Origin: a virus
Lineage: Duplodnaviria > Heunggongvirae > Uroviricota > Caudoviricetes
IMG/VR virus record: IMGVR_UViG_2671180740_000012
DNA length: 40,166 nucleotides
Direction: 5' to 3' (one strand)
In this document: positions 21,001 to 24,000 of the stretch, piece after piece
How the letters are laid out: each line of letters opens with the position of its first letter
Position numbering within the stretch: the stretch's first letter is position 1
Program-made: the position numbers

Positions 21001-24000
21001 TCTTTACCCCATCCGCGATGAACCATAAGGACGCCATTGACGACGGCGTGCTTTTTCGCATCTTTATCATCAATGTATTTTCTGACTGTGGCACGATTGC
21101 AGTTCAGTATTCTGGCGACTTCTGTCTGATTTCCCCTGGTGCAGATCAGTAATTCAGGTATCGTTTGAATTTTAGCATTCATCAAATGTTCTCCAGTTCG
21201 GTGATTTTTATCCCCACTCTACCGCCAGGCACTTTCACGCCGCGAATTACGCGAATGTCATCGAATTGCTCGTCGTCTTCCGCAAATCCGGCGTAGATAA
21301 GAGAGTCGAGTAAACCTTTCAGGATGTTATCGAGGTCGCGACGGCGGGAATCTGGTGGTTCAGCAATAATTGTGATGCGAAGTCGTGATTTAGTGAAAAT
21401 GTCTAATCTGAGTTGCCGGATGATTTGCTGTACGTCTTTTCGGTATTTCTGGCCTTTATCGCTGATGTAGTACTGGCTTCCCCGTCTTCGCCAGTAGGTA
21501 TTCACCGTCGGCGGCCAGGGAAGCACAAACTCATATTCATTCATGACTTAATTTTCCCCTCCTTCAGCAGTATCGCCTGCGTCCTGATCACGCCTTCCAG
21601 GTGGTAAAGTCTGGCGTCGTTGTTGTCGAGAATGCGAGTACGGCGATCGATTTCATTATGGCAGTCACTACAGGCCCATGCAGCCAACAGGTCATCTGGC
21701 TTCATTCCCGTTCCGCAAATTCCAGCCATTCGGTAATGCGCCAAAACTGTAGTTTCAGGATTGCCATTGCATACGCCATAAATCCGTACCTGGCATTCTC
21801 TGCCACGCGCTTCTTTGCGTAGGTTTGCCATCATCTTATTCCTCGTACATTGAGCTATTCGGAATGACTATTAAATCTTGCACGACGCCTTAGCCAACGG
21901 ACATCCCACAGGTGAGCCGTGTAATTGAAGGTTTTAACGTCAGATTCTTTTGGGATTGGCTTGAGTTTATTTCTGGAACGTTTCGTTGGAAGGTAATTGC
22001 AGTTTTCACAGACTATATCGGTGATGCTTCGTCGCTTTCGTCTCATTCGTACCTCCTGTCGGTAAATCTGACCCCCTGCTCCACAGCCCAGGAAGTTGTG
22101 TACTCAATCAGGCTTGCCATACGCTTCACGCTCATCTGCGCACTGCTTTCGCGGATATTGACGCATTCGCCTTCAAGACCAGGTAAAACATCGGCTTCCT
22201 GTTTTGTCGCCACGGCATGACCGCTGATCAACAAAACTTTCCACTGTTCTGGTTTTAGCCACCTGCCACACCACTGAACCTGTCGGGAGATATCAGCGAC
22301 CATCGCGTGAAATTTTGCATTTTGAGCGAGATTACGCTTGTAATCGGTGATGCGGATCGTAACGGGTTTGTCTTTATCGAGAGTTGTTGCAAGGATTGCG
22401 TTAATGGCGAATTGTTGCTGCTGCTTACTTCGGAGGAAGATAGTCTGGTTCATTATTCCCTCTCACTGGATTTTCCCAACAAAAAAGGAGCCGAAGCTCC
22501 TTTGGTTTCAGAATTCAAATTGTCTTGCCCGCAGGCTTTTCAGCATTGGCATGGCCCTCTGGACAACGGAACTTGACATGTCGAGACGTGTTACCTCCCT
22601 CAGTAGCGCGTCTCTGTTCTTCGTCACCATGTAGATAGTCTCAAACGCAATGTCATACAGCTTGTTCGTGTATGAGGAGTTCAGCTCTTTCATAATGGGG
22701 TACAGGTGTTTGCTGATGCCCTGGGCTTTTTCCATCCAGAGCTGCATGTAGCAAAGGAGGATGATTTCCTCGGCTGTGAATTGTGGCTGAATATGCGACT
22801 GCTGTTCGGTTTGTGTTGTTTTTCCCTGGCTGAAATAGCAGTCTTCCAGTTTTTCGAACACTTCCCATGCCTGATCAGTTTCGAGCATTTTTGCGTGACG
22901 GGCTGCTCCGCGTTCTGTCCAGAGGATGAGGGAGCGAACGTTACGGGCGATTTTCACAGAAGGTCTTAAAGACATGCTGTGCTTAAATTCGCGCAACTCC
23001 TCATTCTCAAGTAAAAAGTAGTGCTTACCGATAACAAATCGTCCAGAATTCCGATTGAAATTTTTTCGGATGTAATCTGGTTCTGTGCCATATAAGCTGG
23101 CAAGAAGCTCTGTAGTCACCACAGGTATATTACTAAATGAAATTATGGAGAGGGACTCCACGGAGATGGTTTTCATGCTTTGTGTCCTACTTGATATTTT
23201 GATTTACCCCTTTTGAGAGGGTGACCGGGCGCTCAAAACCGCAAGTAGTCGGCGGGCATATTCCCATTGCTGGTATTGTATTAGCCGCACGCCCGGTCAT
23301 AAACCAAGAAGACTGGACACAAAAAAAACCGCATGTCTGTCGGGCGCGGTAACCGCTACTTGCTAAGGTGTTTTGAGCACCTGACGCAGAGTATCCGACA
23401 GAATGTGTGGTGTGTCAACATTTCCTTGTGTAGATGTTGACACCCTATTAGGTAAAACATTAACGTTGTTTTAAGTTGTTAATAATCATCAATTTAATAT
23501 TAATGTTTGGAGTATAAAAGCATGAGAAAATCCCCTTTGGCATGGTATACGGATGTTCTTTTTAATAACTACTTCAATTATTCAGGGCGAGCCAGTCGAA
23601 GAGAGTTCTGGTGGTATTATCTGTTTAATTTAATATTCTTGGGAGTTCTTTTTTTTATCGGATATACATTAGATAATACTGGCATTAGTTATGGGTTTTA
23701 TATACCTTGCGTTTACGTATTAGCTACGATTATTCCATCCATTACATTGAAAGTCCGCAGACTCCATGATATTGGGTTAAGTGCCTGGTACTTGTTTATC
23801 TGGTGCATCCCGTATATTGGTGGCTTTATATTGTTCGTTATGTACTGTATCCCGTCAGAAAAAGGGGATAATAAATACGGTGCATATAGTATTTAATCCC
23901 CGCCAGATAGTCGCATCAAAAAGTACTGGTTATCTTATCTATTAGATCAAATGTCTTCTCATCAATGTACCAGTACTTTTTATCATCATTTGGGTATTCA

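Follow-up and report, generated by a model that had tools for sequence, protein, structure and literature searches.

The antirepressor-like/DUF805 intergenic region

The sequence analyzed here, termed the window throughout, is the 40,166-nucleotide (nt) viral record IMGVR_UViG_2671180740_000012 of IMG/VR, to which the Shiga toxin 1 (Stx1) phages POCJ13 and 75/02 are essentially identical. The locus of interest lies between a minus-strand open reading frame (ORF) of 222 amino acids at 22508-23176, whose product is antirepressor-like, and a plus-strand DUF805 ORF at 23522-23896; on its minus strand it contains a structured RNA of the sRNA-Xcc1 family, together with short boxes complementary to the exposed parts of that RNA. 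A previous inspection made without database searches, called here the sequence-only reading, had noted nested inverted repeats and a palindrome in this interval, and suggested a structured RNA or a regulated promoter that controls the DUF805 cargo island, possibly through the prophage repressor CI.

The repeats themselves were all recovered by a repeat search: the perfect 10-bp inverted repeat TGACCGGGCG/CGCCCGGTCA (23222-23231 and 23290-23299), the perfect 10-bp pair GTGTCAACAT-N12-ATGTTGACAC (23412-23421 and 23434-23443), and the long arms, which came out as two blocks, GGCGCTCAAAAC/GTTTTGAGCACC (23228-23239 and 23370-23381) and GCAAGTAG/CTACTTGC (23241-23248 and 23356-23363). The A8 run that had been listed also exists, at 23321-23328 and not 23322-23329, i.e., one base away from where it had been placed. 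By our own arithmetic, the 381 nt concerned should hold ~0.07 perfect 10-bp inverted pairs; two were observed, and the repeats therefore exceed chance. Overlooked in the sequence-only reading was a third copy of the two-box arrangement, at 23187-23202, directly before the start codon of the antirepressor-like gene. The composite motif TCAAAA-N0-12-CAAGTAG is present three times in the 40-kb window, each time at this locus, with 0.03 copies expected. Read from the sequence, the repeats are one minus-strand unit, a predicted antisense RNA plus its target copies.

The sRNA-Xcc1 RNA and its exposed boxes

The Rfam family sRNA-Xcc1 (RF02221) matches 84 nt of the minus strand, from 23298 to 23215, over the full model (positions 1-87), scoring 79.6 bits against a gathering threshold of 53 (E = 4e-13). 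The RNA is a three-way junction closed by a 9-bp stem, P1 (23298-23290 with 23231-23223), and this stem is what had been listed as the first 10-bp inverted repeat. Two boxes are single-stranded and exposed: the loop box L', CUACUUGC, in the loop of P3 (23248-23241), and the junction box J', GUUUUGAGC (23239-23231). What had been described as long arms are these two boxes paired with their copy in the leader. Folded in isolation, the RNA is more stable than every one of 200 shuffled versions (z = -2.65). Across 70 sequences, P2 and P3 contain compensatory pairs in which both sides have changed, and P1 differs yet still pairs in the copies from E. coli, Acinetobacter, Pasteurella, and Xanthomonas; RNAalifold did not call P1 because the MAFFT alignment had misregistered it. 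The flanks in the window are UUAU/G on the 5' side and /ACC on the 3' side, the slash marking the end of the RNA. A discrete Xcc1 RNA of ~88 nt with mapped ends is on record from Xanthomonas (PMC2996969), and very high read counts, with little coverage by ribosomes, have been reported for the sRNA-Xcc1 locus of enterohemorrhagic E. coli EDL933 (PMC5331693).

The structured RNA that had been suspected is thus present, as the Rfam match attests, although it lies on the minus strand and does not face DUF805. No Rfam family was found on the plus strand at E <= 10, DUF805-associated motifs included, and a plus-strand RNA serving DUF805 was ruled out on this ground. On the 3' side of Xcc1, a minus-strand hairpin CCCU-CUCAAAA-GGGG (23207-23221) repeats the junction-box target in its loop, and this hairpin also occurs in Acinetobacter phage 4316. 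The P2 arm (23256-23287, minus strand) has an internal loop, AAUACAAYACC/GGGAAUA, that hardly varies across the Rfam consensus and that the C4 RNA of phage P1 lacks; in the variant from E. coli JNEC-KY176 this internal loop is replaced, and the RNA still scores 69.5 bits.

The downstream target and the antirepressor-like gene

The third two-box copy, UCAAAA-UAU-CAAGUAG (23202-23187, minus strand), consists of the downstream junction-box target J2 (UCAAAA, 23202-23197) and the downstream loop-box target L2 (CAAGUAG, 23193-23187). L2 runs into the Shine-Dalgarno (SD) sequence AGGA (23188-23185), which lies 8 nt before the AUG at 23176-23174. L' can pair with L2 over 7 bp and J' with J2 over 6 bp; the resulting duplex at the ribosome-binding site (RBS), of 7 + 6 bp with a 3x3 internal loop, is predicted at -14.5 kcal/mol, and that with the leader copy at -30.6 kcal/mol.

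The gene that begins here (22508-23176, minus strand), labeled roi in the sequence-only reading, encodes a 222-amino acid protein with an ORF6N domain (PF10543, 2e-19) and a P22 antirepressor C-terminal domain (PF10548, 4e-7) by Pfam. Its start codon (23176) is 38 nt past the end of the Rfam match (23215), and the 3' strand of P1 ends at 23223. Because the covarying box overlaps the SD of this ORF6N/P22AR-C gene, the controlled gene would be the antirepressor-like gene and not the cargo island, and the proposal that the repeats govern the latter was abandoned.

Promoter and leader

A promoter scan detected a sigma-70 promoter on the minus strand, TTGACA-17-GATACT (23390-23418), with 10 of 12 matches. 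Its -35 hexamer (23418-23413) is inside the left arm of the palindrome, and transcription would start near 23383. A TTGACA hexamer had been reported within the palindrome; there is in fact one in each arm, one on each strand. A promoter with an operator-like palindrome, as had been proposed, is therefore found, except that the detected promoter is on the minus strand and faces the antirepressor-like gene.

The minus-strand leader opens with a hairpin, AGGUG-CUCAAAA-CACCU (23366-23382), whose loop displays the upstream junction-box target J1, GCUCAAAAC (23370-23378). It is followed by the upstream loop-box target L1, GCAAGUAG (23356-23363), which covaries with the P3 loop. In our nomenclature L boxes correspond to the b boxes of phage P1 and J boxes to its a boxes, so that J1 is the counterpart of P1 a1 and L1 that of b1. 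The leader ends at 23321-23356 with a GCGG-UUA-CCGC hairpin overlapping a terminator-like ACCGC-N13-GCGGU and then a U8 run (23328-23321). The terminator-like stem has 5 bp and a 13-nt loop and was not called by the scan; the leader fold has z = +1.14. Family-wide, the 5' strand of the leader hairpin is usually SD-like (GGAG, AGGAG, GAGG, or GGUG), as if mimicking the RBS region.

Beyond the terminator, UUUGUGUCC (23315-23323, minus strand) is complementary at 9/9 positions to GGACACAAA (23187-23179), which spans the SD to the AUG, and this pairing is used in the minimum-free-energy fold of the read-through transcript. At one related locus (L096) the pair reads UUUAUGUCC/GGACAUAAA, a compensatory A-U change, and other relatives keep the pairing via G-U changes. 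As a family-wide trait, however, the pairing was rejected: its signal is weak (51 of 5,000 permutations) and is driven by U-runs facing purine-rich SD sequences, and only the enterobacterial subgroup makes a convincing case.

Covariation across relatives

Related loci were collected by a pattern scan of IMG/VR that yielded ~76 usable loci, with 58 distinct loop segments and 61 distinct box combinations; all 18 loci that were re-scanned exceeded the Rfam threshold for sRNA-Xcc1. The loop box and both of its target copies change together across these relatives. A perfect complement of at least 7 nt to the loop box occurs within 75 nt downstream for 48 of 61 cognate combinations compared with 3.8% of non-cognate pairs, and within 75 nt upstream for 53 of 61 compared with 8.2%; none of 10,000 permutations reached the observed means (7.03 vs. 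4.29; 7.21 vs. 5.23). Across the family, 6-12 nt separate the end of the downstream box from the start codon. The junction box varies too (UUUUGAG, UUUCGAA, UUCUUAG, UUAUCAG, GUGUCUAG, and others), and its targets follow. Two distant examples illustrate the pattern. Acinetobacter phage 4316 has its Xcc1 RNA directly 5' of a KilA-N gene, and Pasteurella phage Pmp3 directly 5' of an Ant gene, both at an RNA-to-gene distance of 20-50 nt; the loop box CUUCGUA of the former is matched by targets UACGAAG and CGAAG-GAG, and the UUUUUGG of the latter by CCAAAAA, which is present twice.

The rest of the arrangement recurs as well. The upstream junction-box target is displayed by a hairpin loop at 125 of 138 loci, on stems of 4 bp or more that covary and have ~40 different sequences, and a U-run follows the upstream boxes at 53 of 59 loci, a median of 28 nt past L1. 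Promoters matching at least 9/12 consensus positions end 6-16 nt before the leader hairpin at 42 of 68 loci, as opposed to 14 of 375 control windows. Most loci precede antirepressor-type genes: among the 63 for which the downstream gene was classified, these were Rha (13), ORF6N (12), P22_AR_C (11), KilA-N (8), Bro-N (7), AntA (6), and P22_AR_N (5).

Likeness to P1 immI and other antisense systems

In the P1 genome record, the C1 operator Oc4 overlies the -35 hexamer and is followed by the promoters, a1, b1, the 77-nt c4, a2, b2, and icd-ant. The order in the window is identical, namely operator-like palindrome, promoter, upstream box pair, antisense RNA, downstream pair, and antirepressor-like gene. 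In P1, b' is the loop of the second hairpin and a' the junction that precedes the 3' strand of the stem that closes the RNA, and the boxes of the window RNA are placed in the same way; likewise, b2 of P1 abuts the SD and a1 is in the loop of a 5' hairpin. Variable specificity boxes are common to P1/P7 c4 and the Xcc1 module, and the antisense mechanism by which P1/P7 c4 controls the antirepressor is summarized in PMC12197685. The leader ends are similar (GCGGACAACCGC...TTGCGGTATTTTTGTGTCC in P1, GCGGTTACCGC...ATGCGGTTTTTTTTGTGTCC in the window), and that of the window aligns with the P1 c4 leader as GCGG..CCGC..TGCGGT-T-run-GTGTCC. The flanks of the two RNAs agree, reading AAUUAU/GGUGGGG...GCC/ACC in P1 and GGUUUAU/GACCGGG...GUC/ACC in the window. 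Hartmann et al. are said to have found, in 1995, that C4 is an RNase P substrate.

There are also differences. Where C4 has its hairpin 1, the window RNA has a longer arm that contains a conserved internal loop, the closing stem has 9 bp compared with ~17 bp in P1 C4, the window unit reaches its target gene directly, without the icd-like coupled ORF of P1, and neither the operator sequence nor its regulator is related to C1. An Rfam search of P1 returned C4 at 68.8 bits, c4-a1b1, and isrK below threshold. At E <= 10, C4 (RF01695, clan CL00128) had no match in 23100-23600 and neither isrK (RF01394) nor c4-a1b1 (RF03163) had one in the window; as these models are silent, the window is not a member of those families, and identification of the leader as Rfam isrK or c4-a1b1 was rejected. 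Among 18 Xcc1 leaders there was no isrK call, the isrK matches at one locus (L016) belonging to neighboring C4 copies.

Parallels extend to other phages. In Gifsy-1, the short terminated IsrK RNA activates, and the read-through transcript is a translationally inactive antirepressor mRNA (PMC4825925). Like the IsrK/STnc1160/orf45-anrP system, the window has a promoter-proximal short RNA with upstream boxes, complementary to a stable RNA 3' of the terminator; unlike IsrK, the leader has an activating role that is only putative here, it has no upstream coupled ORF, and the isrK model is silent on it. As with P4 CI and its seqA/seqC, a processed RNA would pair both upstream and downstream on its own transcript (PMC4825925), but P4 CI causes premature termination of replication genes, whereas the downstream target here is an RBS. 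P22 sar is also a small antisense RNA directed against antirepressor translation (PMC12197685); it is, however, encoded on the opposite strand and fully complementary, whereas the window RNA is co-transcribed and structured and uses short boxes.

C4 and Xcc1 modules may also stand side by side. Phage Nil2 (positions 4039-5252 of locus L003) carries isrK-C4-antA and then leader-Xcc1-antB in tandem, and L016 (2422-3753) has the order isrK-C4-Xcc1-ORF-isrK-C4. Such tandem modules suggest stacked or cascaded antisense controls.

The palindrome and the distribution of the module

The palindrome (23412-23443) places its left arm over the minus-strand -35 hexamer and its right arm over a plus-strand TTGACA. 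The arms are complementary at 10/10 positions, 4 bp beyond what two -35 hexamers require. Other family members have their own, unrelated long-spacer inverted repeats over the -35 hexamer, for example AACATGCAA-N22-TTGCATGTT in Acinetobacter phage 4316. The 10-bp arms and the similar placement in relatives therefore favor a protein-binding site, and, by analogy, the palindrome may be the operator of a repressor at a position equivalent to P1 Oc4, an assignment that we make tentatively and that could well prove wrong.

CI was the regulator that had been proposed, on account of a GTCAAC core shared with the right operator (OR). The gene for CI is at 30957-31724, and the OR repeats are ATGTTAACTAT/ATGTCAACTAT and TAGTTAAC/GTTAACTA. 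Taken literally the shared core is there, as TGTCAAC occurs in one OR repeat (ATGTCAACTAT, 30930-30940), but the recurring OR half-site is of the GTTAAC type, and its arms are adjacent instead of 12 bp apart. No copy of GTGTCAACAT with two or fewer mismatches was found in OR or the left operator (OL). With near copies of the arm absent, and with half-sites and arm spacing that differ, a CI operator was rejected, and control by the prophage CI is unsupported by the sequence. Other identities were also discarded: the palindrome does not contain the CTGT-N8-ACAG of a LexA box, and no U-tract follows it on either strand, as a terminator would have. The cargo island encodes a Gp49/HigB-like toxin and a helix-turn-helix (HTH) antitoxin (25172-25880), a pair with its own perfect palindrome, ATAACAAATTTGTTAT, just upstream (25227-25242); the HTH protein was considered as the regulator, but its own palindrome differs and no link was found. 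Judging from the sequence, a weak divergent promoter for DUF805 (TTGACA-18-TAACGT, plus strand) is possible on the right arm, although the promoter scan did not call it.

Of 5,426 complete E. coli genomes, 152 carry the Xcc1 module, as do many Stx phages; RefSeq PGAP annotates nothing at that place. The palindrome and promoter, together with the DUF805/toxin-antitoxin island, are present in eight of the 5,426. Other Stx phages are homologous as far as 23394, and E. coli JNEC-KY176 from 23389 onward; these two independent breakpoints, both located after the -10 hexamer and ahead of the transcription start, mark a mosaic junction. In one of the eight genomes, this promoter continues, at ~23389, into another Xcc1 variant and another AntA/AntB gene, which has matching boxes of its own. 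As the promoter is shared while the RNA and the gene differ, the promoter/operator and the RNA/target unit are separable cassettes.

Several neighboring or related features may be recorded here. In phage P13374 (positions 4011-4350 of L002), an annotated 48-amino acid "antB2 antirepressor" and "ORF28" overlie sRNA-Xcc1 and its leader; these calls over a non-coding RNA are probably spurious. Chromosomal and integron copies in Xanthomonadales (L132, L135, L138, L197, and others) retain the promoter, the leader hairpin, and a strong terminator, and their downstream ORFs encode either ~80-90 amino acids (symE, according to a 2025 preprint) or ~200-260. At L226, two type II hammerhead ribozyme matches (328-411 and 2856-2935; 57.6 and 64.6 bits) flank the sRNA-Xcc1 module. 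Elsewhere in the window, an STnc100 Rfam match (17799-18012, minus strand; 195 bits against a threshold of 47) is downstream of Q and upstream of stx1.

Proposed mechanism and alternatives

The anatomy of the unit, its strand, the complementarity and covariation of its boxes, the position of its promoter, and the type of gene downstream are matters of observation. Taking sequence and analogy together, we think it probable that the locus is a C4-type (P1 immI-like) antisense module, built on an Xcc1 scaffold, that keeps the adjacent antirepressor-like gene off. The Xcc1 RNA would be cut out of the leader transcript, probably by RNase P, as its flanks resemble those of P1 C4. Once released, it would pair with J2 and L2 and block ribosome binding, and the antirepressor-like protein would not be made. 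The hypervariable loop box would set phage-specific recognition, as the 58 loop segments among 76 loci suggest. The short leader ending at U8 would probably be a decoy, or anti-antisense RNA, in an activator role like that of IsrK; given -30.6 kcal/mol for the leader copy and -14.5 kcal/mol for the RBS copy, a terminated leader would make an effective decoy. Alternatively, the leader may work by attenuation in response to how much of the RNA is present, with pairing to L1 shifting the GCGG-UUA-CCGC and ACCGC...GCGGU hairpins and so tuning termination. These steps are modeled on P1/P7 c4, Gifsy-1 IsrK, and P4 CI.

Some of our results weigh against such a module. The terminator hairpin of the leader is energetically weak (z-score +1.14), and the RBS duplex is modest (-14.5 kcal/mol) and overlaps the SD by merely 2 nt. 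Since the Rfam C4-type models are silent, homology to C4 rests on the architecture and on a short leader similarity. The pattern used for the IMG/VR scan lay in P2, so that one P2 subtype was sampled, and the sequences are phylogenetically related. Furthermore, in the Xanthomonadales chromosomal copies the upstream boxes covary but RBS-proximal boxes were not found, so that occlusion of the RBS does not hold for every family member.

The antisense module has to be set against four other explanations. One is a purely cis-acting leader, comparable to a riboswitch or thermosensor, in which the boxes pair with the RBS or the leader on one and the same unprocessed mRNA, without release of an RNA or any action in trans. 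Every complementary element does lie on one predicted transcript, the read-through fold buries both SD and AUG through UUUGUGUCC, and in P2 the internal loop AAUACAAYACC/GGGAAUA, which is strongly conserved, might bind a ligand or a protein. We nevertheless consider this unlikely in view of the discrete ~88-nt RNA with mapped ends in Xanthomonas, the abundant untranslated RNA in EDL933, and the UUAU/G and /ACC flanks that match those of the RNase P substrate C4; hypervariable boxes are, moreover, the expected product of a trans-acting immunity. The cis and trans modes are not mutually exclusive and can coexist. Trans action of another kind is the view of the Xanthomonas and Xylella literature, where Xcc1 is a virulence small RNA (sRNA) that acts mainly on mRNAs of the chromosome or the host; control by HrpG/HrpX and target predictions have been published, and the missing RBS-proximal boxes of the Xanthomonadales copies fit this view. 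For that to hold in phages would be quite improbable, as the conserved covarying complements there are only the two flanking copies, the composite target is found nowhere else in the window, and a hypervariable specificity loop is a misfit for a conserved host target.

The model of the sequence-only reading, a plus-strand structured RNA and/or a CI-controlled promoter for DUF805 and the cargo island, draws on the right-arm TTGACA ~80 bp before the DUF805 start, with its weak -10 TAACGT at an 18-bp spacing, on the palindrome accompanying the DUF805 island in the eight E. coli genomes, and on the TGTCAAC of one OR repeat. It is nonetheless very improbable: no plus-strand promoter was called by the scan; the Rfam match, the promoter, and the covariation all belong to the minus strand; the RNA part (23177-23394) is found in 152 E. 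coli genomes and many Stx phages without DUF805; and adjacent GTTAAC-type half-sites in OR differ from palindrome arms 12 bp apart that have no near copies in OR or OL. Least credible, and to our minds scarcely worth entertaining, is a small non-autonomous mobile element that has inserted into, and split, an ant gene. The Nil2 record does annotate a "putative bacterial retrotransposon", and the ~220-bp block has sharp homology borders. However, antA and antB of Nil2 are overlapping paralogous ant-type genes, each with its own RNA module, and not two halves of one gene; phage VT2phi_272 has a single ant after isrK and C4, and in a local BLAST against it the antA and antB parts align to the same stretch, by which the notion of a retrotransposon disrupting ant was rejected. 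Terminal repeats, a target duplication, and empty sites were not seen, and the orientation and position of the block are constant, directly 5' of an ant-type start codon with matching boxes.

A bolder extension of the antisense module is that Xcc1 modules are a widespread three-RNA switch of programmable specificity, consisting of decoy leader, antisense RNA, and RBS, in which the P2 internal loop is a sensor for a protein or small molecule that gates the release or the activity of the antisense RNA. We rate this as speculative and doubtful. If it were true, antirepressor expression, and with it prophage induction and cross-induction, would answer to a signal other than SOS, and the Xanthomonadales and integron copies, including those before symE, would be the same device used for toxin control without an RBS box.

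Significance

The sRNA-Xcc1 RNA was first described in Xanthomonas campestris and has been treated as a trans-acting, virulence-regulated integron sRNA; it belongs to no Rfam clan. In its published contexts it adjoins an ORF6N gene (APSE phages) or symE (Xanthomonas integrons), and a 2025 study predicted 212 Xylella targets, as well as plant targets, for Xcc1 homologs. Xcc1 is not mentioned in a 2025 review of phage sRNAs (PMC12197685), and in the searchable literature we found neither flanking target boxes for Xcc1 nor a link to antirepressor control. The RNA family is thus a catalogued one and the kind of module classical; within that literature, it is the link between them that appears to be new.

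Antirepressors can trigger prophage induction, including that of Stx phages, without cleavage of CI. How tightly the antirepressor-like gene is repressed would therefore matter for the release of toxin and for cross-talk among prophages that share a cell. For the Rfam Xcc1 family as a whole, the module provides a concrete putative function, with the two flanking boxes of the RNA itself and the antirepressor RBS as the conserved partners, and the natural diversity of covarying boxes may constitute a ready-made set of orthogonal RNA repressors.

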